Source of the DNA: an uncultured Candidatus Peribacteria bacterium
GTDB taxonomy: Bacteria > Patescibacteriota > Gracilibacteria > Peribacterales > Peribacteraceae
Direction: 5' to 3'
Length of the DNA: 30,742 nt
NCBI GenBank assembly: GCA_964428105.1
Contig: CAYRWT010000001.1
Coordinates: 1-30,742, forward strand
The notes under the pieces were generated by a model. It saw only the letters and a list, made by a program, of their open reading frames with translations. It had not been told where the DNA came from and made no database searches. Both the position numbers and the translations under genes were made by a program. Positions 4,890 to 30,437 of the stretch are shown here, in pieces. The first letter of the stretch is position 1. Each line of letters opens with the position of its first letter.

Positions 4890-4903
4890 CGTAGGATAGG
4901 AAT

Positions 4904-5287
4904 GTGTTGGAGCGTACAGTCATCGGCTGCATCGGGACTCCAGATGACGGAGGACATCATACCTGTAGAAAGTTTTGGAATGCGATATTTTCTCAGCAGA
5001 ATATTTCTGCCACATTTGAAATTTACCCACTGACGTTAGCAAAAGATGTGCAATTGCGCCTTGCCGAGATGGAGCTCCATGCACGCCGAGCGTACATCCT
5101 CCATGGTACAGAATTACAGCGTTTAATCCTTCCATTCCTTGATCGGATTGATGCTCATGCTCAGCAAGAGCAGCGAGTTGATACTGTCCTCAATAATTCT
5201 GGGGTTCTTGTTGGCTACGCGTTAGAGACAAATGATGATCGCTATGCTGTTACTCCTCGTTTTGCACATTGGTTTCCTCGTAAGTGA
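4904..5287 (+). CDS. Stand-alone, degenerate shikimate-dehydrogenase (AroE) substrate-binding-domain-like protein (127 aa, GTG start)
   Basis: The layout IGCIGTP...NAIF...ATFEIY...LPFLDRIDAHAQQEQRVDTVLNNSGVLVGY parallels the AroE N-domain (LD.l...A..igAVNTi...g.l.GYNTD). Catalytic motifs and the Rossmann domain are absent. Confidence 0.6.
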   Translation: MLERTVIGCIGTPDDGGHHTCRKFWNAIFSQQNISATFEIYPLTLAKDVQLRLAEMELHARRAYILHGTELQRLILPFLDRIDAHAQQEQRVDTVLNNSGVLVGYALETNDDRYAVTPRFAHWFPRK

Positions 5288-5342
5288 TATTGCAAGATGA
5301 TCAACTTAGTTTGAAAGTGATTGCGCTTCTCTTTATCCTGCA

Positions 5343-5348
5343 TAGAAT
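5343..5348 (+). promoter_or_regulatory. -10 box TAGAAT 6 nt before the pgk ATG (putative leaderless promoter); TTGCGC at 5321-5326 is a possible -35
   Basis: TAGAAT-gattgt-ATG; the same geometry recurs at many genes in the window. Confidence 0.6.
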
Positions 5349-5354
5349 GATTGT

Positions 5355-6566
5355 ATGAAGAAGCTCTATCGCACGCTTGATTCTGCAAATTTCCAAGAAA
5401 AAAGAGTGTTTCTACGAGCGGGGTTTGATGTTCCAATCGAAGATGGCAAGGTTCTTGATCGTACGCGCATCGAAGCAATTATTCCTACGATGCGTGCAGT
5501 TCTCGATGCTGGAGGAATCTTGGTTCTTGCTGCACATCAAGGAAGGCCAAAAGACGCTCCAGATTCGGCATTTTCTCAGCAACCACTTGTTCCAGTGCTC
5601 AAGGAATTACTCGGATGTCCTGTGCATTTTGCCCATGACTGTATCGGTCCTGGAGCTGCAAAAGTTATCCAGCATGCAAAGCCAGGAGAAGTCGTACTGC
5701 TAGAAAATTTACGTTTCTATCCTGGCGAAAAAAAGAATGATACTTCGTTTGCAAAAGCATTAGCTTCTCTGGCTGATGTCTATGTGAATGATGCGTTTAC
5801 AAATTGCCATCGTGAACATGCAAGTATGGTAGGAGTTGCTAAGCTCCTTCCTGCGTTTATGGGGAAAAATCTTGAGCGTGAAATTCTTGAACTTGATCGC
5901 ATCGTGCATCATCCTGAGCATCCACTGACACTCATCGTTGCAGGATCGAAGATGGAGACAAAGGTGCCAGTGATTCAGCGTTTTCTAAAAAAAGGAGATC
6001 ATGTTCTCGTCGGAGGCTGCATCGCCAATACATTCATTGCCGCTCGAGGATTTTCTGTTGGTGATTCTAAATATGATGAAAACGAAGTTCCTCTTGCACA
6101 GAAGTTTATGTTGGAAAGCTCGAAAAATGGGAGAGCAAAAATTCATGTTCCTCCAGATGTTGTGTGTGCAGATGAGCTCAGTGAAACGGCACAGAAAGTT
6201 GATTTGCCGGTTGAGGATATCGAGGGCGATATGAAGATATTTGATATTGGAAAAGTAACAATCAAGAGATACTGCGAGATTATCGAAAGCTCAAAGATGA
6301 TTGTATGGAATGGTCCACTTGGCGTGTATGAATACAACCGTTTCTCTCACTCCTCGAAGCGCATTGCCGAGGCGATTGTGCGTGCGACCAGTGCAGGAGC
6401 TCGCAGTATCATCGGAGGAGGGGATACGATCGATTTCCACCTTCGATACAAATATCCGCTTTCGAAATACTCTTTCGTAAGTATGGGTGGTGGGGCGATG
6501 CTTGAGTACATCGCAGGGACACATTTCGCTGCGCTGAAAGTTTTAGAAGCAAAACATCGTCGTTAA
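5355..6566 (+). CDS. pgk: Phosphoglycerate kinase (divergent substrate-binding motifs)
   Basis: KRVFLRAGFDVP, HQGRP, LLENLRF, YVNDAF, WNGPLGVYE, GGGDT, SMGGGA; 403 aa. Confidence 0.93.
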   Translation: MKKLYRTLDSANFQEKRVFLRAGFDVPIEDGKVLDRTRIEAIIPTMRAVLDAGGILVLAAHQGRPKDAPDSAFSQQPLVPVLKELLGCPVHFAHDCIGPGAAKVIQHAKPGEVVLLENLRFYPGEKKNDTSFAKALASLADVYVNDAFTNCHREHASMVGVAKLLPAFMGKNLEREILELDRIVHHPEHPLTLIVAGSKMETKVPVIQRFLKKGDHVLVGGCIANTFIAARGFSVGDSKYDENEVPLAQKFMLESSKNGRAKIHVPPDVVCADELSETAQKVDLPVEDIEGDMKIFDIGKVTIKRYCEIIESSKMIVWNGPLGVYEYNRFSHSSKRIAEAIVRATSAGARSIIGGGDTIDFHLRYKYPLSKYSFVSMGGGAMLEYIAGTHFAALKVLEAKHRR

Positions 6567-6633
6567 AATATAGAACACCATTCATCATTCCATCCCTTCT
6601 GCTTCATCAAAAGATCGGGCATACTCTGCTTCC

Positions 6634-8250
6634 GTGGGATCTGCGCTACACTCCATCGTTGTTCTGCTTGTAGACAAGAGCAAAAAACTTGAGGAAATAG
6701 TGTCTGAAATTCGCTCTACAAGTGGCCCTCTCGTGCTTGTTGTGTCTCCAGAAGGATTTTCTGATACAGATGACAACGCTCTTCGAGAGGCGTTCAGTGG
6801 ACTACGATCTCTCAATCAAGATCGTCAACTATTCTTGGCAACGAAGCATCTCCCTCTCATTGCTATCGCTTCTGAAACTGGATGGCAAACGCTTCGTACT
6901 CTCAAAGATCTGAGGTTTGTATTACGAGGACATCCATTGTTATCCCAAGCATCACGAACCTTAAGTCCCTCTCTCTGGCGACAGGGAATTCGTTCGAAAT
7001 TACAAGCTGTTGGCGTTCTTTCTCTACCAAGGCTTCGTATTTGGTTATTATTCCTCGGAAGCTTCATTATCTTCTTCTTCGTTGTTTGGAGGATTTTACC
7101 ATCTGCACGCATCATCATTTGGCCGAAAATGGAGGTGGAAAGTTTTACCACAAATGTCTTCCTTGTTGCTTCTGGAAGTATCGTCCCTTCCTCTTCTGAG
7201 CGTGTAAGAGTTTTGCCGTTATATCCTCTCACGGTAGAGGTGGAACGCACACTGACCTTTGATCAGGTGAGTAAAACATTTACAGGGAAGAACGCTCAAA
7301 TGACACTGACAGTACAGAATGATAGTGATGAACCATATTCTTTTCGTAAAGGTACGAGATTTACAAACCAAGCTGGTATGCAGTTTCGTATAACAACAGA
7401 TGTGGTCATTGATCCAAAAACTTCCATAGATGTTCTGGCAATTGCAGATCCTCTTGATCAGTATGGAGAAGTAGTAGGGGAACGAGGAAATGTCCCTAAA
7501 GATATTCGTTGGGATATACCGGGGCTTTCTCTTCCAGAACGTCGTCTTGTGTATGCACGCAATAGTGCTCCAGCACAAGGGGGGACTACTGCGTATATGA
7601 ATGTACTCAAAGCGGAAGATATTGATTTGGCTCGTAAAAAACTTGAACAAGACCTTATTGTTGTTGCGCGTCAGTTATCGGATGAAGAACGCATCACCCG
7701 CAATGCGCTTTCTGGGAGTTTTCTTGTGGAACTGCAGTACGATGATTTGACAAAAATTCAATATCACGACATTGACCTCCCTACTTCATTCATCGGGAAA
7801 AATGTAAATTCTATACCGGTTCGTGGTGGCATAAAGTACACCGTCTTGCTCTACGATGACCAAAAACTGATGGATCTTATGATTGAAGAAATTCGTCATC
7901 GCATACCTCAGGGTAAACTCATCGTTGATTCCTCACTCAATCGCAATAATCTGCATCTTCACGTTATTCCCCCATGGGATGATGATTTTGCTTGGGTGAA
8001 AATTACTGCAGACTTCAACTATCAACAGCGTTTTGTTCTGAGTCCTATTACACCAGAAGGTGCTCTCTTCGCTCGTGAGATTCGTGAAAGCGTCATTGGG
8101 AAGACGGTACAGGATGCACTGCGTGTCGTTCGTAACCTTCCAGAAGTAGCACGTGCAGAAATTCGTCTTTGGCCTCCATGGTCCAATTCCGTTCCGGCAC
8201 TTCCCGAAAGTATTATCGTCACTGAGGTGACAGACGATACTAATGAATAG
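6634..8250 (+). CDS. Membrane-anchored baseplate-J/gp47-like protein (solo gene, CPR type)
   Basis: One TM helix (IWLLFLGSFIIFFFVVW), then A.MTLTVQN...GTRF...GMQF...V.A.A...G..GNV...GL...GG and a C-terminal IGKT...LPEV...I.LWP.W. Recalled pattern of baseplate-J-like proteins; needs HMM confirmation. Confidence 0.6.
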   Translation: MGSALHSIVVLLVDKSKKLEEIVSEIRSTSGPLVLVVSPEGFSDTDDNALREAFSGLRSLNQDRQLFLATKHLPLIAIASETGWQTLRTLKDLRFVLRGHPLLSQASRTLSPSLWRQGIRSKLQAVGVLSLPRLRIWLLFLGSFIIFFFVVWRILPSARIIIWPKMEVESFTTNVFLVASGSIVPSSSERVRVLPLYPLTVEVERTLTFDQVSKTFTGKNAQMTLTVQNDSDEPYSFRKGTRFTNQAGMQFRITTDVVIDPKTSIDVLAIADPLDQYGEVVGERGNVPKDIRWDIPGLSLPERRLVYARNSAPAQGGTTAYMNVLKAEDIDLARKKLEQDLIVVARQLSDEERITRNALSGSFLVELQYDDLTKIQYHDIDLPTSFIGKNVNSIPVRGGIKYTVLLYDDQKLMDLMIEEIRHRIPQGKLIVDSSLNRNNLHLHVIPPWDDDFAWVKITADFNYQQRFVLSPITPEGALFAREIRESVIGKTVQDALRVVRNLPEVARAEIRLWPPWSNSVPALPESIIVTEVTDDTNE

Positions 8251-8261
8251 AACTCATTCTA

Positions 8262-8293
8262 GAATGATGTACAAGATACATTGTGCATCATTC
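8262..8293 (+). terminator. 13-bp stem-loop after the baseplate-J-like gene (candidate terminator between convergent genes)
   Basis: GAATGATGTACAA-gataca-TTGTGCATCATTC: 12 Watson-Crick pairs and one G.U pair that forms only on the + strand. No strong U tail. Confidence 0.55.
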
Positions 8294-8300
8294 AATAAAC

Positions 8301-8320
8301 ACAGGGAAAGACTCCCCCGT
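8301..8320 (-). terminator. Candidate intrinsic terminator of tyrS
   Basis: Minus strand ACGGGGGA-GTCT-TTCCCTGT followed by GTTTATT; the G.U pairs form only on the tyrS strand. Confidence 0.55.
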
Positions 8321-8340
8321 TTCAATCTTCAGTATTCAAG

Positions 8341-9510
8341 CTACATCTGTATCTTGAGAAATTTTCTTTTTCCAACTTTGAGGATTCCTATTTCAACTTT
8401 TGCATCAATTGACGTTACAGCTTTTTCATTGAGCTTTATGCCACCTTGCTCGATAAGTCGACGTGCTTCCCCTTTTGAGGTGACAGTCTTGCTCGTGAGT
8501 AGGGCATCGATGAGTGACTCCCCTTTTTTCGCTGTGTACTCAGGCATGTTCTCTGGCACACCTTTGTTTTTAAAAACATTCTCAAATGCTTCTTCGGCAG
8601 ACTTCGCAGCATCAGCTGAGTGATACATCGTTACAATCTCACGTGCGAGGCGCATTTTGAGAGTCTTGGGATTGATAGATCCTTCCTTCAACGCTTTCTC
8701 GGCTGCTTGCACTTCCGCTACTACGAGATCTGTACAGCATTCCATGTAGATTGGAATCAGGTTATCCGGCATGGACATGAGGCGACCGTACATCTCATTT
8801 GGCACATCGGTGAGGTAAACACAGTTATTGTAGGTTTTACTCATCTTTCTGCCGTCTGTACCGGCGATCAGCTTTGTTGTTAGTACGAACTTGTCACGCT
8901 TTTTAAAAACTTGTTGCAGGGTTCTGCCGGCAAGCATATTGAAGAGCTGGTCATTTCCCCCTAGTTCCACGTCGACATCGAGCATCACGGAGTCGTACCC
9001 AACCATGAGTGGGTACATAAACTCTGTGACACTGATTGGAGTATCTTCACGCATGCGTTTTGCAAACATATCGCGCTTGAGCATTTGCTGAACTGTAAAA
9101 TTACTTGTGAGACTGAGGATTTCCTTGAATGATAGTTTTTCAAGCCACTCATGGTTATAGCGTATTTCTAGCTTACTTATATCAAGAATCAGCTTTGCTT
9201 GTTCGATATATGTCTCGAAATTCTTGCGCACGTCTTCAGCACTGAGTGGCTGGCGCATTTCATCTCTTCCACTTGGATCTCCAATCATTGCTGTAAAGCT
9301 TCCAATCAGTAAAATTACATGATGTCCTGCGTCTTGAAATTCTCGCATCTTTCGCAGTGGAACAGAGTGGCCGAGATGGAGTTTTGCACCAGTAGGGTCT
9401 ATGCCAAAATAGAGCCGGAGTTTCTTCCCTGATGCCAACTTTTCCTCAGCAACTTTCTGGGGTACAACTTCTTCGACTGCCCGTGTAAGGAGTTCACTAC
9501 GAGTTCCCAT
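8341..9510 (-). CDS. tyrS: Tyrosine--tRNA ligase (389 aa; likely start MGTRSELL at 9510, not 9690)
   Basis: LYFGIDPTGAKLHLGH (HIGH), YPLMVGYD, GGNDQLFN, KMSKT, C-terminal S4 domain (KGEARRLIEQGGIKLN...GKRKF). Confidence 0.96.
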   Translation of the reverse strand: MGTRSELLTRAVEEVVPQKVAEEKLASGKKLRLYFGIDPTGAKLHLGHSVPLRKMREFQDAGHHVILLIGSFTAMIGDPSGRDEMRQPLSAEDVRKNFETYIEQAKLILDISKLEIRYNHEWLEKLSFKEILSLTSNFTVQQMLKRDMFAKRMREDTPISVTEFMYPLMVGYDSVMLDVDVELGGNDQLFNMLAGRTLQQVFKKRDKFVLTTKLIAGTDGRKMSKTYNNCVYLTDVPNEMYGRLMSMPDNLIPIYMECCTDLVVAEVQAAEKALKEGSINPKTLKMRLAREIVTMYHSADAAKSAEEAFENVFKNKGVPENMPEYTAKKGESLIDALLTSKTVTSKGEARRLIEQGGIKLNEKAVTSIDAKVEIGILKVGKRKFLKIQM

Positions 9511-10486
9511 GCCTGCTAGCCTACGGCATACTCTCTCTATCGAGCAACTCCCTACCATCACCGGCGTCGTAAGCTCATCCTCTCGTCTTGATGCATACCT
9601 TGCAAGTCTTCCGGGAATCACAAGTCGCAATGCAGGGTCAAAACTTATCGAAGGTGGATACGTCACAGTGAATAGTAAAATTATCCTCAAACCATCTGCA
9701 AAAGTAACAGCAGGAGACTCTGTTATTGTGGGTACTCCTCCCCTCTCCTCCCCTTCAAAAAAAGATTCTCTTCCTTCCTCTCTTGCTATTCTCTTCGAAG
9801 ATCCATCGTGCTTTGTTATTTGTAAGCCTGCAGGAATGATTGTTCATCCTGGTGCTGGAGTGAAGAATGATGCAGTGACTGTACTTTCAGAAGCTCGCAA
9901 GCTCTTTGCTGCACGGGAAATTCCATACCATGCACATGCAGTCCTAGTGCATCGACTCGATAAGGATACGACTGGCTGTCTCTTGCTTGCAAAAACTCCA
10001 GCAGATCATCTGTTGTTTCAGAAACAGTTTGCAGATCGAAAGATTCAGAAAACATATCTTGCAATCGTCCATGGAGTACCGAAATTGGCGCATGCACGTA
10101 TCGATGCTCCGATTGGTCGTAGTCCCAGCGATCGAAGGGCAATGTCGGTCTTCTCGGGATCGAAGAGTCGTGAGGCGTTTACGACGTATCATGTTCTTGG
10201 TGTATCTAAAAATAGTGATTCATCGCTGCTTTCCGTGGATCTCCATACTGGTCGTACCCATCAAATTCGTGTGCATTTAGAATCCATTGGTCATCCTGTT
10301 CTGGGTGATTCGATGTACGGAAAATTGGCGAATAATGAATCTCTACCTTCAATTTGTCTCCATGCTTGGAAGCTTGCGTTTACACTACCAAATGGGAAGC
10401 AGCAACAAGTTATCGCTCCTCCTTCTACATCCTTTCTTTCTGCACTGAAAGAACGAGGAATTCCTCCTCCTAAGGACGGAAAATAA
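9509..10486 (+). CDS. RluA/RluD-family RNA pseudouridine synthase with N-terminal S4 domain (start uncertain)
   Basis: RLDAYLA S4 start, KPAGMIVHPG, VHRLDKDTTG (catalytic Asp), TGRTHQIRVHL...GHPVLGD..YG, LHAWKL. Confidence 0.92.
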   Translation: MPASLRHTLSIEQLPTITGVVSSSSRLDAYLASLPGITSRNAGSKLIEGGYVTVNSKIILKPSAKVTAGDSVIVGTPPLSSPSKKDSLPSSLAILFEDPSCFVICKPAGMIVHPGAGVKNDAVTVLSEARKLFAAREIPYHAHAVLVHRLDKDTTGCLLLAKTPADHLLFQKQFADRKIQKTYLAIVHGVPKLAHARIDAPIGRSPSDRRAMSVFSGSKSREAFTTYHVLGVSKNSDSSLLSVDLHTGRTHQIRVHLESIGHPVLGDSMYGKLANNESLPSICLHAWKLAFTLPNGKQQQVIAPPSTSFLSALKERGIPPPKDGK

Positions 10487-12232: not shown

Positions 12233-13345
12233 TCAATTCATCGTTACACGATACACCTCCTCTTTCGTTGTTACATTTGCTGTAATCATTTCTTCGCCCC
12301 ACTCAAGCATGTTCTTAAATCCTTCTTTTCGTGCGATTTCCTCGAGTTCGGCACTCGTGCTTTGCAAGAGAATTCCATTACGAATCGCAGGAGTAGCGAC
12401 GAGGAGTTCCGGTAAACAGCACTGGCTTGTATAGAAGTTTTTCTCATCTTCATTGTGCACGATTCCATCTTTTCGTAATTCTGGATTGATCGTACGAACA
12501 AGTCTTTGTGCAAGTACAGCGCGAAGCGATGGTGCAAAGGTATAAGTACTGACTCCCATCGAGAGTAGACGTGGGATCGCTTCGATTGAGGAATTCGTAT
12601 GGAGAGTAGCAAACACTAAGTGACCAGTGAGGGAAGCGTCGATTGCTGTTTGAGCTGTCTCTTGATCACGAATTTCACCGACGAGGATAATATCTGGATC
12701 ATGACGCAGAATTGCGCGTAAACCAGTAGCAAATGTATAGCCATGCTCTGGGTCTACTTGGCTTTGGATAATATTTGGTAGTTCATACTCGATTGGATCT
12801 TCGAGTGTGATGATATTGCGATCTTTCCCAGCAAGACGCGAGAGAAGTGCATAGAGTGTTGTGGTTTTTCCAGAGCCAGTTGGACCGGTGACAAGAACGA
12901 GACCGTGTGGTAGCTCTGAAATACGCATCAGTTCCTTCTCGATTGCCATCGGAAAACCAAGTTTTTCGAGCGGTGCGATACCGCGTTCAGGATCGAGAAA
13001 ACGTAGCGTAAATGCTTCGCCAAAGCGCGTTGGTAGTGTGGCAACACGTACGTTGATGAGTCTCCCTCCACATGGGAAGGTATATTGGCCATCTTGTGCT
13101 GTCGCTTCTACGTTGAGTTTGAGCTTCGATTTAAACTTAATTCTCCTGTCGATAACATGGAAAATATCTGGAGTGACATCGAAGAGTTTTTTGAGTACCC
13201 CTAGCTCTCTCCACTCGATACTGACAGAGCGTTTTCCGGGATTGATGTGAAGATCCGAAATATGGTTTTGTATAGCCTCTAGCTCCAGGTTTGAGAGGAG
13301 TTCTTCTCCTGGAAGAGCGGCGATGCGTTTGAGATCGAGAGCCAT
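12233..13345 (-). CDS. GspE/PilB-family secretion/pilus ATPase, short form (370 aa)
   Basis: SDLHINP, QDG, GPTGSGKTTT (Walker A), TLEDPIEY (Asp box), LRHDPDIILVGEIRD (Walker B), TGHLVFATLHTN (His box), LAQRLVR. Confidence 0.88.
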   Translation of the reverse strand: MALDLKRIAALPGEELLSNLELEAIQNHISDLHINPGKRSVSIEWRELGVLKKLFDVTPDIFHVIDRRIKFKSKLKLNVEATAQDGQYTFPCGGRLINVRVATLPTRFGEAFTLRFLDPERGIAPLEKLGFPMAIEKELMRISELPHGLVLVTGPTGSGKTTTLYALLSRLAGKDRNIITLEDPIEYELPNIIQSQVDPEHGYTFATGLRAILRHDPDIILVGEIRDQETAQTAIDASLTGHLVFATLHTNSSIEAIPRLLSMGVSTYTFAPSLRAVLAQRLVRTINPELRKDGIVHNEDEKNFYTSQCCLPELLVATPAIRNGILLQSTSAELEEIARKEGFKNMLEWGEEMITANVTTKEEVYRVTMN

Positions 13346-13351
13346 CCGAAT

Positions 13352-13360
13352 ATTATAGCA
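13352..13360 (-). promoter_or_regulatory. Perfect extended -10 TGCTATAAT 6 nt before the ATPase ATG
   Basis: Minus strand TGC-TATAAT-attcgg-ATG. Confidence 0.75.
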
Positions 13361-14280: not shown

Positions 14281-14327
14281 CTGCAAGCGCTATTTTATGC
14301 TCTTTTGTTCTGGTATGCTATGCCCTG

Positions 14328-14912
14328 ATGTTCGAGAAGCTTCGTCGCGGCATTGTTTCCATGGAGTTTGAGGATCAGCTCTATCATGTCGGCGTGATTC
14401 TTACGATGCTTGGAGTTGTACTTCCATGGTTTGAAGGTCGTCTGTATGGTCAAGCGCAGCAGCTATGGACTGGCTTCGGTTTCTATACAGGATATATCGG
14501 TCTTGCAGTATTCTTAGTTCAGATCTTCCTTCTTACGCTGACACTCTCGCCTATTCTTGGTGGACCATCATTCATTCGGCGTTCAAGAAAAACTCTTCTA
14601 CGACTCTGTTTGTCGTCCGCATCACTTCTAGCATTACTGTGTGCTTTTAGTTTTCTCCTTTCATTCTCATTAGAAGTCGCAGGAACAGATATGCGAATGG
14701 GTATTTCACTTTCGATTATTGGTACTTCCTTCTCAGTTCTGTATGCCGCATTGCGATTGCATCAACAACGTGTTCTTGAAACCCGTGAACTGTTTCATCA
14801 TCCTGATGATGCGTTGCAGGCTTCATTTCTAGAAGAAGAAGATGAGAAGAATAAAACTCCACCTCCCCCTCCCCCATCTCCTCCATCGCTCGAGGATCAT
14901 AATATTCGCTGA
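14328..14912 (+). CDS. Hypothetical membrane protein (about 4 TM) with acidic/Pro-rich C-tail; likely start MFEKLRR at 14328
   Basis: Four hydrophobic segments; extended -10 TGGTATGCT at 14311-14319, 8 nt before this ATG. The ORF-track start at 14241 would overlap nadK. Confidence 0.7.
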   Translation: MFEKLRRGIVSMEFEDQLYHVGVILTMLGVVLPWFEGRLYGQAQQLWTGFGFYTGYIGLAVFLVQIFLLTLTLSPILGGPSFIRRSRKTLLRLCLSSASLLALLCAFSFLLSFSLEVAGTDMRMGISLSIIGTSFSVLYAALRLHQQRVLETRELFHHPDDALQASFLEEEDEKNKTPPPPPPSPPSLEDHNIR

Positions 14913-15275: not shown

Positions 15276-16210
15276 GCTCCTTTCAGTGTCTGTACAACTC
15301 TTTCTACCTCGCTCTTTGCTCCGATAATGATAGGGGTACGCTGATCGATATCGTGTATTGTTACATCGAGAAGAGATTGTGTTCCATTTGAAGACGCTCC
15401 ACCAGCTTGCTCAACTAAATATGCAAATGGACCACATTCAAATAGGAGTCGTAGCTTCCCTTGCGGATATTTATTCCCTCCGATGTTTGTAAATATTCCT
15501 CCACCTTTGATGATGAGATGATGGATATCAGGCACCATTCCTCCGGAATACCGAAGTGTCACCCCTTCATCAAGCCAAATATTCATCATTTTCCTGTAGG
15601 ATGGTGTGTCACTTACAGCTCGAAGATTTCCTGGTGAATAGGTCTTCAATTCATCTTTCACTGTGAGCTTCTCTTTAAGGAGGATGAACTCCCCTACTTC
15701 ATTCAAGTAAAAAGCGTGCACTCCTTTTCCTGCGCTATAAACGAGGACAGTCCGAGGACCGTAGACGAGATAGAGTGCTGCTACTTGATCGCGTGGAGTG
15801 CGGCTGATGGGTGTTCCTTTTGGGTAGATACCGAAAATGGATCCAATCGCGAGATTGGCATCGAGAAGTGATGAACCATCGAGCGGATCAAAGACCACAG
15901 AGAATGGCGCTTCTTCATTTAATACTTCCAAATTTGCCTCTTCTTCGGAGGCGATACTTTCAACAAGTCTACTTTCGCAGAGTTGCTCAGAAATGATGTT
16001 GTTACTCAAGACATCCAACTTTAGCTGCTCTTCTCCAAAGGTGTTGCTTGATCCAGCGAGGCCTAAATCAGTTGTTCGAATAGCGTTGTGAACATACTTA
16101 CCAGCTTTTGCGATGTCATTAATCAGGTGACGCAACTGATCAGGAATTCCTGAACGAAACAGATGGTTATTGAGCGACGTGCGCGATGGGAGTTTGCAAG
16201 TAGCAGCCAT
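15272..16210 (-). CDS. fbp: Class I fructose-1,6-bisphosphatase (SBPase-like sequence type)
   Basis: [44 protein letters not shown], EQAGG. Confidence 0.92.
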   Translation of the reverse strand: [312 protein letters not shown]

Positions 16211-16219
16211 AGATTTATC

Positions 16220-17242: not shown

Positions 17243-17283
17243 AGCTTGAGAGTAATGAAATGAAGGAGGGTGATTCAATAGAT

Positions 17284-18351: not shown

Positions 18352-18357
18352 GCAGGT

Positions 18358-18366
18358 ATTCTAGCA
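18358..18366 (-). promoter_or_regulatory. Extended -10 TGCTAGAAT 6 nt before the mraY ATG
   Basis: Minus strand TGC-TAGAAT-acctgc-ATG. Confidence 0.7.
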
Positions 18367-19746: not shown

Positions 19747-19809
19747 GGAGAACGCGATTGTACCGAGACTTCTTCTTCGTTGCCACTGTCTTTCTGCGGC
19801 GATGATGTA

Positions 19810-20148
19810 TTAATTATTTTCTGGCTTACAGTCTCCCAGAAGAAGTTCAATAGCATCTTTGACAAGTGCACCAGCAACAACCACTCTCATTTCTTCATAT
19901 GATGGTCCTTTTCCTTTTACAAGACCCAGACGATCAAATCGATTTTCTTCTCTTGTTGTAAATGCAAGATTCCCACAATCATTGATTCTGCCTCTCATCT
20001 GGGAAATAAGTCCATCAATAGTTGTAATATGCGCTGTCTCCGTGAGAGCTATAAGTGCACCAGCTACGCCTTTCATTCCACTGCCTAACTTTTCATAGAC
20101 AATATTTTCTACACTCTTTCCAGCCTCATTTTTTGAAGAGGAAATCAT
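19810..20148 (-). CDS. Hypothetical 112-aa soluble protein
   Basis: ORF fills the recA-dnaB gap and has its own near-consensus promoter 8 nt upstream. No family recognised. Confidence 0.65.
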   Translation of the reverse strand: MISSSKNEAGKSVENIVYEKLGSGMKGVAGALIALTETAHITTIDGLISQMRGRINDCGNLAFTTREENRFDRLGLVKGKGPSYEEMRVVVAGALVKDAIELLLGDCKPENN

Positions 20149-20156
20149 GCAAAGTG

Positions 20157-20185
20157 ATAATAATCTAATTTTCTTAATTCGTCAA
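20157..20185 (-). promoter_or_regulatory. Promoter TTGACG-N17-TATTAT for the 112-aa gene
   Basis: Minus strand TTGACG (20185-20180), 17 nt, TATTAT (20162-20157), 8 nt, ATG. Confidence 0.7.
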
Positions 20186-22266: not shown

Positions 22267-22309
22267 AAAGAGAGACGGAGTAGAACACTGTCTATCTTAC
22301 ACGAAAAAT

Positions 22310-23419: not shown

Positions 23420-23468
23420 AGAGATGGGCGGAGGAAGGGAACCACACCGTTATACAAGAATTTTGACA

Positions 23469-23499
23469 GAAAAGAAAGGTCTAGTTTTGAGAACCTTTC
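23469..23499 (-). terminator. Candidate intrinsic terminator after ruvX
   Basis: Minus strand GAAAGGT-tctcaaaactag-ACCTTTC followed by TTTTCT. Confidence 0.45.
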
Positions 23500-23587
23500 A
23501 CTCTGAGGGTGTGCCGATTTTTTTGCGAAGTGAAGCATAAGACTGAGATTCAGTGAATTGTCAAAATGGTGTATATCATATAATTTT

Positions 23588-23989
23588 TTATAAAGATGTC
23601 AATAGTTTCTTTCTTCGTGACATTTCAATCTCAAGAATTGTGCAAGCTGCACGCGCATCATCATCCGCTCCGGAGAAGCCCTCTTTTGAGGAAGTAAAGC
23701 GTTCATCGATGTATATGATCTCTATTGTTGGCACTTTCTTCTGTAATGCTTTGCCAACCTCACGCACGTATTCTGCCTGGCTTCCTTCCTCTCCTTGTGG
23801 AAGGCGTGGGAGGCCAAGGATCACTATGTTGCACTGATGTTTTTGGAGCATTGCAAGAATACCATCAACACACTCCCATATCGTACTATGACGCAGTGAG
23901 GATAAGGCGATAATGCAATCTGATGAAATATACCCAAGAGCACAACCCGTCTTGCGTTTCCCGATATCGAGGCTAAGGATGGTGTTCAC
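23588..23989 (-). CDS. ruvX: YqgF/RuvX-family nuclease (GTG start)
   Basis: LSLDIGKRKTGCA, VILGLP, IDERFTS, DDARAACTILE. Confidence 0.92.
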   Translation of the reverse strand: MNTILSLDIGKRKTGCALGYISSDCIIALSSLRHSTIWECVDGILAMLQKHQCNIVILGLPRLPQGEEGSQAEYVREVGKALQKKVPTIEIIYIDERFTSSKEGFSGADDDARAACTILEIEMSRRKKLLTSL

Positions 23990-23998
23990 AGGATCATC

Positions 23999-24262
23999 TT
24001 ACGCCTTTTTAGCTACAAGCTTTGAAAGGGCAGATTTTTTATGAGCAGCGTTCTTCCAGTGAATGAGATTCTTCTTTGCAGCAAGGTCAATCTTTTTGAA
24101 TGCATTGCTTAGAGCTTTTTGTGCTTCAGGAAGCTTCCCTTCCTTTGCAAGGTCTTGGATAGAACGAATCGCTGTCTTCATCGCAGTATTCATTGGGCGA
24201 CGACGCTCACGTCGAACTTCTGACTGACGTGCGTGCTTTACGGAGGCTTGTAGGACTGGCAT
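23999..24262 (-). CDS. rpsT: 30S ribosomal protein S20 (87 aa; likely start MPVLQAS at 24262)
   Basis: ASVKHARQSEVRRERRR...MKTAIR...IDLAAKKNLIHWKNAAHKKSAL. The ORF-track extension to 24388 is not supported. Confidence 0.93.
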   Translation of the reverse strand: MPVLQASVKHARQSEVRRERRRPMNTAMKTAIRSIQDLAKEGKLPEAQKALSNAFKKIDLAAKKNLIHWKNAAHKKSALSKLVAKKA

Positions 24263-24271
24263 AGCGGACGC

Positions 24272-24300
24272 AGGGTACGGGAGTAGAAAGCTGAAGTCAA
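24272..24300 (-). promoter_or_regulatory. rpsT promoter TTGACT-N17-TACCCT
   Basis: Minus strand TTGACT (24300-24295), 17 nt, TACCCT (24277-24272), 9 nt, ATG. Confidence 0.65.
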
Positions 24301-24387
24301 ATTCTCTGAAAAGAAAAATGAATGAGGTGTCTCGATTATCTATGCTACTATTTAGAGCGTACTTCTTTCGTTTTGATTTTCTCGTCA

Positions 24388-24393
24388 TAAAAT
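24388..24393 (+). promoter_or_regulatory. -10 box TAAAAT 6 nt before the glmS ATG
   Basis: TAAAAT-ctccct-ATG. Confidence 0.6.
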
Positions 24394-24399
24394 CTCCCT

Positions 24400-26172
24400 A
24401 TGTGTGGAATCTTCGGATACATCGGTACGCGAATTGATGCCGGCAAGATCGTATTGAATGGACTGAAAAATCTCGAGTATCGTGGCTATGATTCTTGGGG
24501 GGTAGCTATGCAAACAGAGAATAAACTTCGCATCACAAAAGATATTGGAAAGATTAGTGGTGTTGATGCGCAGCAATTCGAAGCTTCATCGAGCCTTGCG
24601 ATTGCACATTCCAGATGGGCAACCCATGGTGGAGTCACATCCCTCAATGCCCACCCTCACATAGATAGTTCTGGAGAGATTGCTGTTGTTCATAATGGGA
24701 TCATCGAAAATTATGAGGAATTGAAGCATGAATTAGAGTCACAAGGAGTGGCATTTGTTTCCCAGACAGATTCAGAAGTCATTCCCCATCTTCTCGCATC
24801 GTTTTTGCATCAGGGACTTTCCTTTGTCGATGCATTTCGCAAGACGTGTTTACGTTTACATGGCCGCTTTGCAATTTTGGCACTCCATCAAACAGAACAT
24901 TGTCTGATAGCAGCGCGTATCGGCTCCCCTCTCATCGTTGGTGTTGGAAAGAAGGAAATTTTTATCGCATCTGATATCCCAGCATTCCTCGAACACACAC
25001 GTACCGTGCAATATCTCGATGATGGCGAAATGGTCGTTGCTTCAATGGATGGCGTGACGTTTAGTGATATAGCGAGTGGTACAGAGCGTACAAAACGCAG
25101 TATCGAGATTGCATGGAAATCTGGAGACGCAACAAAAGGAGAATACCAACATTACATGCTCAAAGAGATCATGGAGCAAAAAGAAAGCATTATTCGTGCC
25201 GTGCACCAAGATGATGAGGAAATCGAAACGATTGCACACGCTATCGAACATTGTATGGGGTGCTTTCTCTCTGGTTGTGGAACCGCTGCAAAAGTCTGTA
25301 TGGCTGCTGAGTACTTTTTCTCGGTCGTCGCTCATCGCCATGTGAATGTCGTTGCTTCAAGTGAATTTAAGCTCTATCACCACTTTCTTCGCCCAGAGAG
25401 CTTACTCATCGTCGTAAGCCAAAGTGGAGAGACAGCAGATGTTCTCGAAGCAATGAGTGTTGCGAAGGCTGCGAAGTCCAAGGTTCTTGCAATTGTGAAT
25501 GCAGAAGGATCTTCTATCTATCGTGCTGCGAATTCTGCTCTTTTGATCAATGCAGGGCCTGAGCGCGCTGTTGCATCCACAAAAGCAGCAACAGGACAGA
25601 TGGCTGTACTTCTCCTTATCGCTCACGCTGTTGCAGGGAAATTGAAAGAAGGAAGGACTTTACTCTTAGAAACTGGCGGAAAAATCAATGATATGTTGAA
25701 TCCACGCTATATCGAGCACATCCGCTCGATCGCTGAGACCATCAAAGGACACGAGAACCTCTATATCATCGGAAAAGGTTGGAATTACCCTATGGCGCTC
25801 GAGAGTGCGATAAAGATCCAGGAAGTGAGCTATGTGCACGCGGAAGGTTTCGCTGCTGGTGAACTCAAGCACGGTCCTATTGCTTTGATAGAAAAAGGCA
25901 CACCGTGCCTTGCTCTCCTCGGTGAAGATGAAGTGAAGACAGATGTCCTCAGTAATATCCAGGAACTGAAAGCTCGTGGAGCAAATATCATCGCTATCGC
26001 ACCAGAGAAACATCCTTCGTTCGATCACTGGATAAAAGTGCCAGACAGCGGACCTGCTCAGCCAATCGTGAATGTTATCCCAGTGCAGATCCTCGCGTAC
26101 CTCCTCGCAGTGCTTCGAGGGAAAGATCCGGATATGCCAAGAAACTTAGCGAAGAGCGTGACGGTGAAGTGA
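24400..26172 (+). CDS. glmS: Glutamine--fructose-6-phosphate transaminase (isomerizing)
   Basis: MCGIFG, LEYRGYDSWG, HSRWATHG, NAHPH, VHNGIIEN, SQTDSEV, SQSGETAD, ELKHGP, PRNLAKSVTV. Confidence 0.98.
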   Translation: MCGIFGYIGTRIDAGKIVLNGLKNLEYRGYDSWGVAMQTENKLRITKDIGKISGVDAQQFEASSSLAIAHSRWATHGGVTSLNAHPHIDSSGEIAVVHNGIIENYEELKHELESQGVAFVSQTDSEVIPHLLASFLHQGLSFVDAFRKTCLRLHGRFAILALHQTEHCLIAARIGSPLIVGVGKKEIFIASDIPAFLEHTRTVQYLDDGEMVVASMDGVTFSDIASGTERTKRSIEIAWKSGDATKGEYQHYMLKEIMEQKESIIRAVHQDDEEIETIAHAIEHCMGCFLSGCGTAAKVCMAAEYFFSVVAHRHVNVVASSEFKLYHHFLRPESLLIVVSQSGETADVLEAMSVAKAAKSKVLAIVNAEGSSIYRAANSALLINAGPERAVASTKAATGQMAVLLLIAHAVAGKLKEGRTLLLETGGKINDMLNPRYIEHIRSIAETIKGHENLYIIGKGWNYPMALESAIKIQEVSYVHAEGFAAGELKHGPIALIEKGTPCLALLGEDEVKTDVLSNIQELKARGANIIAIAPEKHPSFDHWIKVPDSGPAQPIVNVIPVQILAYLLAVLRGKDPDMPRNLAKSVTVK

Positions 26173-26241
26173 TGGTATGAGTTTTCAACTATGCCGCCTT
26201 TAGTTTTTCGTGCTCTTTCAGTACATCAAATCCTATTTGAG

Positions 26242-26553
26242 TTAAGATGAATGCGTAAGAGCATACTTAACAACATCTGCGACTGTTTCAGTGGTGATGT
26301 TTTTTCTAATGCAATAACTAGAATTTAGCCAAAGTTTAAGTAGCTTTGCGCCCTTACTTGCATTACAAGAGCAACAACAAAGAGCAATATTGTTTGAATT
26401 AACAATACTAGCGTTGTTGATAATATGTTCCCAGGTTTGTATAGATTTTCGAGATTTATTGTTTTGGGTGAATTGGATACCGCAATAAATACAGGACTTA
26501 TCTCTGTTTCTCACCTCATTTTCTAGCCAGTCTGGAATATTCCATTTATTCAT
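26242..26553 (-). CDS. Small HNH-family endonuclease (103 aa, low GC)
   Basis: RDKSCIYCG...WEHII...NIALCCCSCNASKG: two CxxC motifs and an H-N-N pattern. Confidence 0.85.
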   Translation of the reverse strand: MNKWNIPDWLENEVRNRDKSCIYCGIQFTQNNKSRKSIQTWEHIINNASIVNSNNIALCCCSCNASKGAKLLKLWLNSSYCIRKNITTETVADVVKYALTHSS

Positions 26554-26600
26554 AACACACTGATTTTACACAACTATCAGTAACCATGCTTCGATTCTCC

Positions 26601-29177
26601 TCACCTCTTCTCATCTGGTGGTAGACCGTAATACTCGAAGAGGAAGGCGGCGATGTCCTTGAAGAGTGGAGCTGCGGATTTCGAACCGAAATCATCTTTC
26701 TTCGGGCGATCGAGCTTTACGAGAACAACGAACTTGGGATCATCGACTGGGGCAAACCCTGCGTAGGTCGCAATCGTCGAACCTGTTCCTGTTTCATATT
26801 TTCCTCCAGGACCAGCGATCTGACTTGTACCGGTCTTTCCTGCGATGCGGTGACCCTTCACCTTTCCTGCTTTCGCAAAACCATTTTCAGCGCTATTCGT
26901 AAGCATCGCAGTGATAGTCGCTGCTGTTTCTGGTTTTATCACCTGTGCAATTGGGGCTGGTTGTCTTTTTTCGACTGTGCCATCGGATTGGCGTAGTTCA
27001 TCGATAATTGTTGGTTTCATGAGCTTTCCTTGGTTTGCGAGTGCAGCAAATGTTGTCACCATTTGGATCGGAGTAACAGAAATACCTTGTCCATAGGACA
27101 TGGTAAGAACAAGAGCGTCATTCCAATCTCGCCAGCTCTTTAAATCCCCTGGAAGCTCACTATCCAACTCAATTCCTGTGATGTGGCCAAAGCCAAAGCT
27201 ATCGAGAGCTGAGTGAAAGAGTTTTCTGCCAAGTTTTTTACTGACACTCGTCATGCAGGTGTTGATAGAAAAATTGATGCAATCGACCATTGTCACTTTT
27301 CCATAGTATTTATTCAAAGCATTTTTAATCGTAAAGACATCCACTTTCACTGGGCCTTCATCATTGTAAATATCGCTTGGTACGACTTCCCCCTGATCAA
27401 TTGCTATAGCCATGGTAATTGCTTTCATGACAGAACCTGGTTCATAAATCTCTTGTACCGCTCTATTGATATACGATCCAACACCGATATTGTTTCTGTA
27501 TTTCAGCCAAATATGTGGTTCCTGAGTTTTAAATATTTCCCGACGGTTATTGTCTCCGATGTAGAGGTAGTACCTGGTAATTTTATGTAAGTCATAGAGT
27601 TTTTCGAGATCAGAAAGTTGCTGCTGTTTTTCTGGTGAGAGTAGAGATCGTCGTTCCTTTAAATCGGGGAGATAGCTCTTCAAAACACGTACATTGGTAG
27701 TAGGGTCATAGACTTCGATGACAACATTGTTTTCATATGTTTCATCGAGGTAAATTGGTTCACGTTCATAGACTGAGGCATAGCTATTTGAATCGAATAA
27801 TGGAGCATTTGCCATCGCGATAATACGTCCAGTTTTTGGTTCGATGATAACAACTTGCCCGCTCTCTGCATCTACTTTTTTTACCATGGCCTCTAGAAGT
27901 TCCTCCACCTTACTTTGTATAAATCGATCGATTGTCAGAACGATTGTTGCACCATCTTTTGGATCGATAAACGTCTGATCTGAAGAGAGAATTTGCCGAC
28001 CAAATGGATCACTAACAGAGGTAATAAGACCCTCCTGACCTTTCAGAAGTGTGTCATAGGCACGTTCGACGCCGTATTGTGGTTCTTCCAAGGTATTGAT
28101 GAACCCTACAACGTGAGAGGCAATACGTGTATCAGGATAAAATCTCCAGTGCTGTGCGATGAGAGCAACGGATCTGAAAGGATCTTCAAGTCCTGTTGTA
28201 GCTTGTGGTTTTCTTCCTGCGGCACGAGCTTCGGTAACAATACGTTCGCGTTCAGCAAGAGCTTTTTTTGCTTCCCGATCTTTCAATTGACGAATTTGTA
28301 GAGAAATTTTTGGTGGCAAACGTCCCATAATTGGAACATAGCGAAGTTTTCGTGTTTGTAGCTTGTTGATGATCACACTTGGATCGATTTGTAGTATTTT
28401 TGAGAGTGTTCCAGCGATTTCTTCACGTTCGTCTTGATCTACTTGCTCAGGGTTAGCAAATACGAGGCCATCGACAGCATTGACTGTAATCCCGGGGATA
28501 TGAAGATCGTTGACTGCTTGCTGCTGAAGTTTATTTGCACCATACAATAATGGCACGAATGTCATATGCGTTTGTCGAATCTTTTCTTCTATATCGCGAG
28601 AGAAATGACGACGAATTTCACCGATATTTTCTATGGATGTACTGTCTCGCAAGATTGTGCCAGTGTTTACAATTGGAATTTGTGAGCCACTTGATGCTGC
28701 AAACACAGCTGCGATTGGAAATCGTAGTGGATTGAATGCAGCTTGATAGTAGGTGATAAGTTCTGATGGGCAACCCGATAGGCCTTTTCTGCATATTGAA
28801 TCAATTTCATTTGTAATAAGAATATCACTTAACGCATCTGCAACTCTTCCATGATGCTCTCCAATTGTTAGTGGATCGATATAGAGGAGATCGAGTGTTG
28901 TATTCGTCGCAAGAATGCTCACATCATTTGTCTTACTATTGCGACTCAAAATTTCTCCACGTTTTGCAGGAAGAACCACACCTCCATATTGCTGTGCTTG
29001 TGCAATTTGGTGATAATTCTTTCCCTGTAGAATTTGTAGTTCGAGTAACCGAGCAATGACGATGAGACTCAATGTAAGGAGTCCCATATGGAGATAAAAG
29101 AGGCGTCGTTCGAATCTCCTCTTTCGTTGCGCGTCGGAGAGAGCTGCTCTCAAGTACACGGAACGAGAGTGTAGCAC
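26601..29177 (-). CDS. Class B penicillin-binding protein (FtsI/PBP2-like), 858 aa with large insertions (GTG start)
   Basis: TM anchor, PAKRGEI, RFYP, GVERAYD..L.G..G, LTID..IQ, EPGSVMK (SxxK), SIN (SxN), KTGT. Confidence 0.92.
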   Translation of the reverse strand: MLHSRSVYLRAALSDAQRKRRFERRLFYLHMGLLTLSLIVIARLLELQILQGKNYHQIAQAQQYGGVVLPAKRGEILSRNSKTNDVSILATNTTLDLLYIDPLTIGEHHGRVADALSDILITNEIDSICRKGLSGCPSELITYYQAAFNPLRFPIAAVFAASSGSQIPIVNTGTILRDSTSIENIGEIRRHFSRDIEEKIRQTHMTFVPLLYGANKLQQQAVNDLHIPGITVNAVDGLVFANPEQVDQDEREEIAGTLSKILQIDPSVIINKLQTRKLRYVPIMGRLPPKISLQIRQLKDREAKKALAERERIVTEARAAGRKPQATTGLEDPFRSVALIAQHWRFYPDTRIASHVVGFINTLEEPQYGVERAYDTLLKGQEGLITSVSDPFGRQILSSDQTFIDPKDGATIVLTIDRFIQSKVEELLEAMVKKVDAESGQVVIIEPKTGRIIAMANAPLFDSNSYASVYEREPIYLDETYENNVVIEVYDPTTNVRVLKSYLPDLKERRSLLSPEKQQQLSDLEKLYDLHKITRYYLYIGDNNRREIFKTQEPHIWLKYRNNIGVGSYINRAVQEIYEPGSVMKAITMAIAIDQGEVVPSDIYNDEGPVKVDVFTIKNALNKYYGKVTMVDCINFSINTCMTSVSKKLGRKLFHSALDSFGFGHITGIELDSELPGDLKSWRDWNDALVLTMSYGQGISVTPIQMVTTFAALANQGKLMKPTIIDELRQSDGTVEKRQPAPIAQVIKPETAATITAMLTNSAENGFAKAGKVKGHRIAGKTGTSQIAGPGGKYETGTGSTIATYAGFAPVDDPKFVVLVKLDRPKKDDFGSKSAAPLFKDIAAFLFEYYGLPPDEKR

Positions 29178-29186
29178 GATTCTTTT

Positions 29187-30422
29187 TTACCGTTCGATCA
29201 TATGAGCTCGCTCTGGCCCTGTTCCTATATACGCAAGAGGACAATGAATTTGGTCCTCTATTGTAGAGATAAATTCTTGAGCTTCTTTTGGCAATGCATC
29301 GATATTTGTACAATTTGCTGTGGACTGCGACCACCCCGGTATTTCTTTGGTAACAGGCTTTCCTTCCTTCATTGCTATACAGAGAGGAATCGATGGTTCT
29401 CCATCTAAAACATCAAGTTTTGTAAGGTTAATATGTGTTACTCCATTCATCGCGATACTGCGCTCGATATCTGGTAGTGAGAGCCATCCACAACGACGGG
29501 GACGACCAGTAACAGAGCCAAACTCCCCTCCTCTCTTGCGTAGGATATTTGCACGGTCTTCCTGTGCTTCCATCGGGAATGGTCCACTCCCAACACGTGT
29601 GCAGTAGGCCTTCATGACACCGATACAACTTGTGAGAGATTGGGGGGCAAGTCCTAAGTAATGCAATGCAGCTGTCATCGTCGTTGCGCTACTTGTAACA
29701 AATGGATACGTGCCATGATCGAGATCAAGAAGGGCTCCCTGAGCGCCTTCAAGAAGCATGCGGCGCTTTGCAGTAAGGGATGAATGCAGAAAGGTAACTG
29801 TGTCACGGATACATGGACAGAGTAATGAGAGGGATTTTTCTACCATTGCAATTTCTGTGTCTACATCGATCTTCACTCCATACATTTGTTCTATATCACT
29901 ACTTCTTTCGCAGAGTATTTTTCGTAGTTTTACAGTATCCTTTATATCTTCCATTCGAATACCAGTACGAGCAACTTTATCCCCGTACGCAGGACCTATT
30001 CCGCGACGAGTTGTTCCAATTGCACTACCTTTTTTTGCTTTTCGATCTTCCATTATTCCATCGATAGCTTTGTGAAACTCAAAAAGAACATGTGCATTAT
30101 TTGCTATGAAGAGACGCTCAACAATTGAAATCCCCACAGCTTTCAAAAGGTCAATTTCCTCGAGAAGCGTAGGAAGATGTATTACCATCCCGCCTCCCAG
30201 GACGATGGAAACATTTGGGTGGAGTGCTCCAGAGGGAAGAAGGCGAAAAACATGTTTCTTGCCATTTACAACGATGGTGTGCCCTGCGTTGGCTCCACCA
30301 GCTGCGCGAGCAATGATATCGAACTGACTACTCAGTATATCGATGATCTTTCCTTTCCCCTCATCTCCCCATTGTAAGCCAATAACACCACAGACATTGC
30401 CAAGTTTCGTAGGAGTACTCAT
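29187..30422 (-). CDS. purA: Adenylosuccinate synthetase (411 aa; likely start MSTPTK at 30422)
   Basis: GLQWGDEGKGK, GGANAGHT, GTTRRGIGPAY, EGAQG..LD.DHGTYPFVTSS, KAYCTRVGSGPF, GSVTGRPRRCGW, LTKLDVL. Confidence 0.96.
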   Translation of the reverse strand: MSTPTKLGNVCGVIGLQWGDEGKGKIIDILSSQFDIIARAAGGANAGHTIVVNGKKHVFRLLPSGALHPNVSIVLGGGMVIHLPTLLEEIDLLKAVGISIVERLFIANNAHVLFEFHKAIDGIMEDRKAKKGSAIGTTRRGIGPAYGDKVARTGIRMEDIKDTVKLRKILCERSSDIEQMYGVKIDVDTEIAMVEKSLSLLCPCIRDTVTFLHSSLTAKRRMLLEGAQGALLDLDHGTYPFVTSSATTMTAALHYLGLAPQSLTSCIGVMKAYCTRVGSGPFPMEAQEDRANILRKRGGEFGSVTGRPRRCGWLSLPDIERSIAMNGVTHINLTKLDVLDGEPSIPLCIAMKEGKPVTKEIPGWSQSTANCTNIDALPKEAQEFISTIEDQIHCPLAYIGTGPERAHMIER

Positions 30423-30428
30423 GACTGG

Positions 30429-30437
30429 AGCATACCA
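30429..30437 (-). promoter_or_regulatory. Extended -10 TGGTATGCT 6 nt before the purA ATG
   Basis: Minus strand TGG-TATGCT-ccagtc-ATG. Confidence 0.7.

Follow-up and report, generated by a model that had tools for sequence, protein, structure and literature searches.

Leaderless messenger RNAs (mRNAs) are known from Mycobacterium tuberculosis, in which 26% of genes are leaderless, the mapped leaderless promoters carry TANNNT 7-12 bp upstream of the transcription start site (TSS), 85% of these sites are purines, a pyrimidine precedes at -1, and 5' untranslated regions (UTRs) of 0-5 nt are classed as leaderless and behave so (PMC3898074). More broadly, the genomes of GeneMarkS-2 group C have a Pribnow box 6-8 nt from the starts of first genes in operons and are 25-50% leaderless; the main text of that study names no lineage of the Candidate Phyla Radiation (CPR) (PMC6028130). 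Our literature search found no report of leaderless mRNAs or promoters in CPR, Patescibacteria, Peregrinibacteria or Saccharibacteria; the GeneMarkS-2 supplementary tables could assign some CPR genome to group C. Here we analyse a comparable arrangement in a 30,742-nt stretch of DNA from an uncultured Candidatus Peribacteria bacterium of the family Peribacteraceae (hereafter the window), in which boxes of the form TANNNT, the pattern of a sigma-70 -10 hexamer, end 6 nt before the start codons of 10 of about 30 genes, and we argue that leaderless or near-leaderless transcripts are the likely explanation.

The window is the first 30,742 bases of contig 1 in a genome of 951 kb (131 contigs, about 90% complete, 45% G+C), and since the records of all 80 relatives found through pgk (55-75% protein identity) are named Candidatus Peribacteria, Peribacteraceae or Peregrinibacteria, the source is a CPR/Patescibacteria genome. 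Gene calling with a periodic Markov model, in which upstream information was unused, yielded 723 genes of at least 80 aa. The comparative sample comprised 1.37 Mb of DNA from 80 Peribacteria species. TGA recoding was judged by a coverage criterion. Throughout, the gap is the number of nucleotides between the end of the -10 hexamer and the start codon.

Genome-wide, the box is sharply positioned. The motif histogram suggested in a preliminary description of this DNA, which had been made from the letters of the window alone, has a clear peak at gap 6: with longest open reading frame (ORF) starts, TANNNT stands there in 72-73 of about 655 genes (p about 7e-27), compared with 19 at gap 5, 26 at gap 7 and about 16 at farther gaps. 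TAYNNT, which can never be a stop codon, occurs at gap 6 in 37 genes versus about 10, and TARNNT outnumbers TARNNV there by 36 to 17, opposite to base composition. When starts are chosen by coding potential, gaps 6-10 hold 75, 44, 43, 43 and 33 genes. A search made independently of gene calls, from the motif towards the gene, gave noisy counts with plain TANNNT, owing to in-frame internal ATGs, and was replaced by stricter motifs and first-start histograms; TANAAT followed by an ATG or GTG opening at least 100 codons was found 35, 21, 19, 21 and 21 times at gaps 6-10 and 4-11 times outside them, with sharp edges at 5 and 11. Blind expectation-maximisation (EM) from random starting points converged on G-[C/G]-T-A-[T/C]-A-[A/C]-T, with T at 86%, A at 91% and the final T at 92%, and assigned this motif to 33-36% of all genes (pi = 0.33-0.36), with gaps of 6 (27%), 7 (17%), 8 (16%), 9 (17%), 10 (11%) and 11 (7%). 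The log-likelihood gain was 336 for the real upstream regions versus 50 for shuffled ones, and the net affected share is roughly 25-35% after the shuffled baseline of about 12-14%.

The sequence around the box has the composition of a promoter. Among the 74 genes with gap 6 at motif-blind starts, G at -14 (43%) and T at -15 (38%) form the TGn of an extended -10 element, T occupies position -35 in 50%, and a pyrimidine precedes the start codon at -1 in 85%. Two promoter elements exceed their frequency at control gaps, in this genome as well as in the 80 related loci: TGn by a factor of 2.5 and a -35 TTG at a spacer of 16-17 bp by a factor of 3-5. Start codons are skewed as well: the gap-6 set uses ATG 59 times, GTG 15 times and TTG never, while TTG makes up 10% overall, and the set with high motif posterior has 124 ATG, 14 GTG and 2 TTG. 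The combination of TGn, a -35 TTG at 16-17 bp, the pyrimidine at -1 and the scarcity of TTG starts therefore points to sigma-70 promoters, and judged by these features the box is a promoter element and not a ribosome-binding site.

The same geometry recurs in related genera. Across the 80-species sample, TANA[AC]T followed by a long ORF occurs 139 times at gap 6, 7-17 times at each of gaps 0-5, and 65, 52, 49 and 26 times at gaps 7-10, and the gap-6 peak is seen in all three identity bins. For pgk, the box lies at gap 6 in 52/80 species and at gap 6-9 in 73/80; all 52 gap-6 species have C or T at -1, and 23 of them a -35 TTG at 16-17 bp. A T2SSE-family ATPase gene keeps gap 6 in 17/17 orthologues, with TGn in 11 of the 17, tyrS has gap 6-8 in 36/44, and the mraY-like gene gap 6-9 in 20/25. 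The GAPDH gene (gap) has the box at gap 6 in 18/29 genera and at gap 6-8 in 25/29, three further genera carrying CATGAT or AATCAT at gap 6. Conversely, ORF 133, ORF 2431 and rluA have no box in the window, and their relatives are consistently without one too. Judging from these orthologue comparisons, how far the promoter lies from the start codon is conserved and specific to the gene, whereas the flanking sequence is not conserved.

The start codons themselves could in several cases be checked without the motif. The preliminary description had moved a number of starts away from those of the ORF track, and Pfam or N-terminal motifs back these changes for gap, purA, tyrS and rpsT. The GAPDH start at 17242 replaces the longest-ORF start 17341 (N-terminus MLRIAINGYGRIGR; position 2 of Pfam Gp_dh_N is aligned with residue 3), the purA start at 30422 replaces 30584 and gives a canonical PurA N-terminus, the N-terminus of TyrRS is canonical at start 9510, and the S20 profile begins at ATG 24262, which replaces the ORF-track rpsT start at 24388. 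In addition, position 2 of the RuvX Pfam profile is aligned with residue 3 from GTG 23989, and the GlmS N-terminus MCGI, with its obligatory Cys2, backs start 24400.

The second half of the signature is the absence of Shine-Dalgarno (SD) signals. Genome-wide, GGAG, GAGG and AGGA are not concentrated at any position ahead of starts, and G is underrepresented between -15 and -1. Ahead of genes without a box, positions -20 to -1 are rich in C and U and poor in G. CCCCC, CCCTC, TCCCT and CCTCC are enriched 3-9-fold there, and T reaches 54% at -1; examples in the window precede the genes at 721, 2431, 21328 (recA), 22266 and 23419. The anti-SD was taken from relatives, the assembly of the window genome being without a 16S gene: among 20 genera of the family, the core at the 16S 3' end is CCUCC in 2, CUUCC in 9, UCUCC in 7 and UUUCC in 2, so that 18/20 are mutated, in agreement with the listing of Ca. 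Peribacter riflensis as SD-scarce (7%) and without CCUCC (PMC10783764). The proposal of a -10-box-at-start architecture, originally based on one window, has been extended to the genome and the family, together with sigma-70 features and a lack of SD.

Two further observations concern the translation apparatus. The anti-SD core covaries with a spacer 7 nt downstream (16S 3' ends of loci L175-L193, L083, L086, L088 and L089): ..TTACCAGGGAG comes after CTCC tails and ..TTACCAGGGAA after TTCC tails. These paired changes in tail and spacer indicate that a short 16S-tail hairpin is kept by compensatory change, which could be a processing stem or a means of tail sequestration. Separately, loss of bS1 was considered as a correlate of leaderless translation and rejected, a four-domain-type S1 homologue having been found in 31/31 genomes searched.

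Transcription by RNA polymerase usually begins about 7 nt beyond the -10 hexamer, so that at gap 6 the first base of the start codon (A or G) would be the 5' end of the transcript, and at gaps 7-11 a leader of 1-5 bases would remain. Given the motif, its geometry and conservation, the SD absence and the anti-SD drift, all of them observed, leaderless or near-leaderless mRNAs are, in our judgement, quite probably the best explanation of -10 boxes that abut start codons; TSS positions and a leaderless mode of translation are themselves predictions from sequence. The genome has sigma-70-type promoters, (TGn)TAnnnT combined with a weak TTG -35 element at a spacer of 16-17 bp, and in about one third of its genes the -10 hexamer ends 6 nt (the most frequent distance) to about 10-11 nt ahead of an ATG or GTG start, a share that comes to nearly one half among genes necessarily heading a transcription unit. 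According to the proposed mechanism, a ribosome carrying initiator tRNA would recognise the 5'-terminal AUG or GUG of the transcripts. SD pairing has no detectable use in the lineage, the anti-SD core has drifted from CCUCC in most genera of the family, and the remaining leadered or operon-internal cistrons lie behind C/U-rich, G-poor leaders.

A wider reading, to which we give somewhat less than even weight, is that Peribacteraceae gave up SD pairing and initiate by two SD-free routes, namely leaderless mRNAs for a third to half of transcription units and C/U-rich, unstructured leaders for the rest. It would take in the drift of the anti-SD in about 90% of genera, the covarying spacer segment, which could sequester the 16S tail, and a leaderless set that would include central glycolytic and cell-wall genes.

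Several points weigh against strictly leaderless expression. An exact gap of 6 is found in just about 27% of motif-bearing genes, and gaps 7-11 may reflect leaders of 1-5 nt instead of true leaderless mRNAs. The pyrimidine at -1 is common also in genes without the motif and hence unspecific. Relatives of rpsT have a conserved TTGAC -35 element and a TACCCT-like -10 box mostly at gap 11, implying a leader of 4-5 nt, and the boxes of fbp and ruvX may be chance occurrences. The window genome has a bS1 homologue, and therefore no obvious leaderless-specific ribosome adaptation. Moreover, the gene starts come from a home-made caller, errors included, and the runs listed with the DNA of the window genome are only DNA metagenomes (freshwater, drinking water, biofilter), with no RNA run among them.

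Part of this evidence bears on the rival that fares best, which accepts the promoters as real but holds that the majority of transcripts fall short of being strictly leaderless, the TSS preceding the start codon by 1-5 nt or more and translation proceeding independently of SD on short, SD-less leaders. About 70% of motif-bearing genes do lie at gaps 7-11 and not at 6, the gap of 11 is conserved among rpsT orthologues, dnaB combines gap 10 with the absence of a purine at the expected TSS position, and the glmS promoters slide from gap 6 to about 20 nt among relatives, where the position of the box is labile (n = 20: gap 6 in 5, gap 6-11 in 13, about 20 nt upstream in others). Against such leaders speak a sharp mode at exactly 6 nt with an abrupt fall at 5, the retention of gap 6 across genera in pgk, gap and the ATPase gene, and a gap-6 set without TTG starts; furthermore, 5' UTRs of 0-5 nt count and behave as leaderless in M. 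tuberculosis (PMC3898074). We regard this rival as improbable, though deserving of some weight.

Operon context bears on whether the box is a promoter or a translation signal. Divergently oriented genes, necessarily the first of their unit, have a motif posterior of 46%; it is 31-35% for same-strand genes at least 16 nt from the upstream neighbour, and 23% for genes at most 15 nt from an upstream same-strand gene, the shuffled baseline being 12-14%. A reading of TAnnnT as a non-SD translation signal on leadered mRNAs, that is, an A/U-rich ribosome or S1 site of the type known from Bacteroidota (GeneMarkS-2 group B), would suit a genome that has a bS1 homologue and lacks SD signals, and group B genomes do have a non-SD motif at a similarly short distance (PMC6028130). 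The group B motif, however, precedes all genes, operon-internal ones included, and cannot represent a promoter, and the window genome does not follow this pattern: tightly linked genes inside operons have its motif about half as often as divergent first genes. In addition, the conserved positions T-A-n-n-n-T are those of the sigma-70 -10 hexamer, TGn and the -35 TTG co-occur at canonical spacing, and the upstream regions of leadered genes are C/U-rich, not TA-rich, which leaves the translation-signal reading very unlikely.

Least credible of all is a product of chance or annotation (AT-rich intergenic DNA, the stop codons TAA and TAG, starts fitted to the motif), for although stop codons inflate the in-frame gaps 0, 3, 6 and 9 at longest-ORF starts, the TA of the fbp and ruvX boxes belongs to a stop codon and some starts in the preliminary description were picked with the motif in mind, the peak at gap 6 persists with TAYNNT, the motif-first test is free of gene calls, shuffling cuts the log-likelihood gain from 336 to 50, starts are confirmed by profiles, the geometry is conserved across 80 species and two sister-family genomes treated alike are without a peak, so that this artefact, rejected for the bulk signal on TAYNNT and shuffling, is possible for fbp and ruvX.

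With leaderless or near-leaderless transcription as the preferred explanation, the individual boxes of the window can be considered; the bracketed spans below that follow a box take in box, spacer and start codon. All ten boxes previously listed at gap 6 and all six at gaps 7-10 are present at the spacing given, the hexamers having been rechecked, and the chance rate then put at roughly 2% per fixed position compares with a measured value of about 2.4% for TANNNT upstream of starts; ten gap-6 boxes among about 30 genes correspond to p about 1e-9. The window is richer in boxes (16 of about 30 genes) than the genome average of about one third.

On the plus strand, TAGGAT (4892-4906) stands at gap 6 before the GTG start of a 127-aa ORF (4904-5287), whose orthologues have TANNNT at gap 6 in 16/47 and at gap 6-9 in 30/47. 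TAGAAT (5343-5357) has the same gap to the ATG of pgk (5355-6566), as does TACTCT (6622-6636) to the GTG of ORF 6634-8250, a gene with variable orthologues (n = 60: gap 5 in 13, gap 7 in 7, no box in 31). TGG-TATGCT (14314-14330) lies at gap 8 before ATG 14328 of a 194-aa ORF, which has a box at gap 5-7 in 8/8 orthologues, and TAAAAT (24388-24402) at gap 6 before ATG 24400 of glmS.

The remaining boxes are on the minus strand. Gap 6 is found for the extended -10 box TGC-TATAAT (13343-13357) of the T2SSE-family ATPase gene (12233-13345, ATG 13345), TACTCT (17240-17254) of the GAPDH gene (16220-17242, ATG 17242), the extended box TGC-TAGAAT (18349-18363) of the mraY-like glycosyltransferase 4 gene (17284-18351, ATG 18351) and TGG-TATGCT (30420-30437) of purA (ATG 30422). 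Longer gaps separate TAGGCT (9508-9523; gap 7) from ATG 9510 of tyrS (8341-9510), TATTAT (20146-20162; gap 8) from ATG 20148 of a 112-aa ORF, TACCCT (24260-24277; gap 9) from ATG 24262 of rpsT (S20), TAAAAT (26551-26568; gap 9) from ATG 26553 of a 103-aa ORF, and TACAAT (19744-19762; gap 10) from ATG 19746 of dnaB, which belongs to the short-leader class. The 103-aa ORF had been called HNH and has no Pfam match at 1e-5. A further candidate, absent from the earlier list, is the extended box TGC-TACACT (29157-29173) at gap 8 before GTG 29159 of a penicillin-binding protein gene.

Two gap-6 boxes, also on the minus strand, are weak: TAGGAT (16208-16222) before ATG 16210 of fbp, in which TAG is the stop codon of the GAPDH gene, and TAAGAT (23987-24001) before GTG 23989 of ruvX, in which TAA is the stop codon of rpsT. 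Both had been called weaker on this ground, and the boxes are not conserved in relatives. TANNNT lies at gap 6-8 in just 4/27 family orthologues of fbp, most of which have a C/U-rich junction after the GAPDH gene, and the 28 ruvX orthologues have gap 6 in 5, gap 6-9 in 8 and no box in 18; for both genes the usual upstream context is a C/U-rich junction or the upstream gene directly, and fbp is probably operon-internal.

These cases bear on the earlier claim that each gene within the apparent operons has a promoter of its own. It holds for mraY and gap, which have conserved promoters (20/25 and 25/29) just downstream of dnaB and mraY, respectively, and is not supported for fbp (4/27), ruvX (8/28) and tight junctions in general (23%). 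The context statistics and the unconserved fbp and ruvX boxes together indicate that operons exist, and a largely monocistronic expression system, as had been suggested, is overstated, tightly linked genes being near baseline.

Some features of neighbouring genes were recorded in passing. The rpsT promoter, with its strongly conserved -35 and -10 elements, is among the clearest full sigma-70 promoters of the family, and about 11 C/U-rich nucleotides separate its -10 box from the ATG (window 24262-24310; loci L270-L298). At 9508-9511, tyrS (minus strand, ATG 9510) and a pseudouridine synthase gene (plus strand, ATG 9509) stand head-to-head within one CATG, and rluA orthologues mostly lack a -10 box (32/42), unlike the conserved tyrS box on the opposite strand. 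ORF 3843-4889 and ORF 4904-5287 are divergent, with 14 bp between their annotated starts (window 4865-4904). Orthologues of the former, which is on the minus strand, have TAtcAT 6-7 nt before GTG or ATG in 37/61 species, whereas in the window TATCCT lies just 3 nt ahead of ATG 4889; the start or promoter seems to have shifted relative to the orthologues. A second GAPDH paralogue, with about 42% identity to that of the window, is located at G000:C44:3822-4820; most family genomes, the window genome among them, have such a paralogue.

Altogether, these results have practical and evolutionary implications. Gene callers that choose the longest ORF or are trained on SD signals misplace starts here, as the genes gap, purA, tyrS and rpsT with their relocated starts illustrate. 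A -10 box at gap 6 can serve to locate starts in Peribacteria and in at least some further CPR lineages. CPR ribosomes are reduced, lacking uL30, and those of Peregrinibacteria are often without bS21 and bL33 (PMC9297842). The whole family appears to initiate without SD pairing and largely on leaderless mRNAs, which allows tests of how initiation evolved on reduced ribosomes and ties the published anti-SD loss of Peribacter to a concrete alternative route. If the leaderless reading is true, genes without a 5' UTR would be excluded from riboswitch-, small RNA- and attenuation-type control, and their control would therefore have to act at the promoter.

Within Patescibacteria the signature is patchy and not unique to Peribacteraceae, as far as small samples with crude starts allow. 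Neither a -10 peak nor an SD peak is seen in two sister families from the class of the window genome (G020 and G021, 300 kb each; loci L094, L105-L112 and L249-L268), a member of another CPR class (G084) has a classic AGGAG motif at gap 4-8, and several others are also SD-enriched. In another CPR family (G050, 280 kb; loci L159-L162 and L239-L248) the motif is TGnTAaacT, 54% of its sites lie at gap 6 and SD is absent. A combination of leaderless and SD-free expression, undescribed for a bacterial lineage, would accordingly recur patchily, being seen in G050 and missing in the sister families, which are without both signals.

Several systems described elsewhere invite comparison. Haloarchaea make little or no use of SD on leadered transcripts. 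With Haloferax volcanii and Halobacterium salinarum the family would also share a high proportion of leaderless genes; archaeal leaderless genes, however, have a promoter box some 26 nt ahead of the start in place of a -10 box (PMC6028130), and archaea differ in their machinery for transcription and translation. The earlier statement that one geometry marks leaderless transcripts in Actinobacteria, Deinococcus-Thermus and haloarchaea hence stands for M. tuberculosis and group C and not for haloarchaea. SD-scarce bacteria such as Flavobacteriia and others (PMC10783764) resemble the Peribacteraceae in lacking SD upstream of genes and in having an altered 16S 3' tail; that study covers SD and anti-SD loss alone and contains no promoter-at-start geometry for Peribacter. 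Flavobacteriia have A-rich leaders (GeneMarkS-2 group B), whereas the dominant upstream signal here is a promoter -10 box.

The closest likeness is to the group C genomes (M. tuberculosis, M. smegmatis, Corynebacterium, Streptomyces and Deinococcus deserti), which share TANNNT 6-8 nt before ATG or GTG with a weak -35, a purine TSS with a pyrimidine at -1 (the TSS being predicted here and mapped there), about 25-50% of transcription units affected, divergent promoters close together and a motif that serves to correct annotated starts. Some differences concern which genes and promoters are involved: TGn is more frequent here (about 20-40%) than in M. tuberculosis (7%), and the core housekeeping genes pgk, gap, tyrS and mraY are of leaderless type here, whereas the leaderless set of M. 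tuberculosis is depleted of energy-metabolism and ribosomal-protein genes, although among those of its aminoacyl-tRNA synthetase genes that have a primary TSS, half are leaderless. The main difference lies in translation: in group C genomes leadered genes use SD and the 16S anti-SD is intact, whereas leadered and internal genes of the window genome lack SD-type ribosome-binding sites, its starts have no SD signal and CCUCC is mutated in 18/20 genera of the family. The mechanism proposed would be of a kind already known from mycobacteria and Deinococcus, and the lineage would be new for it.

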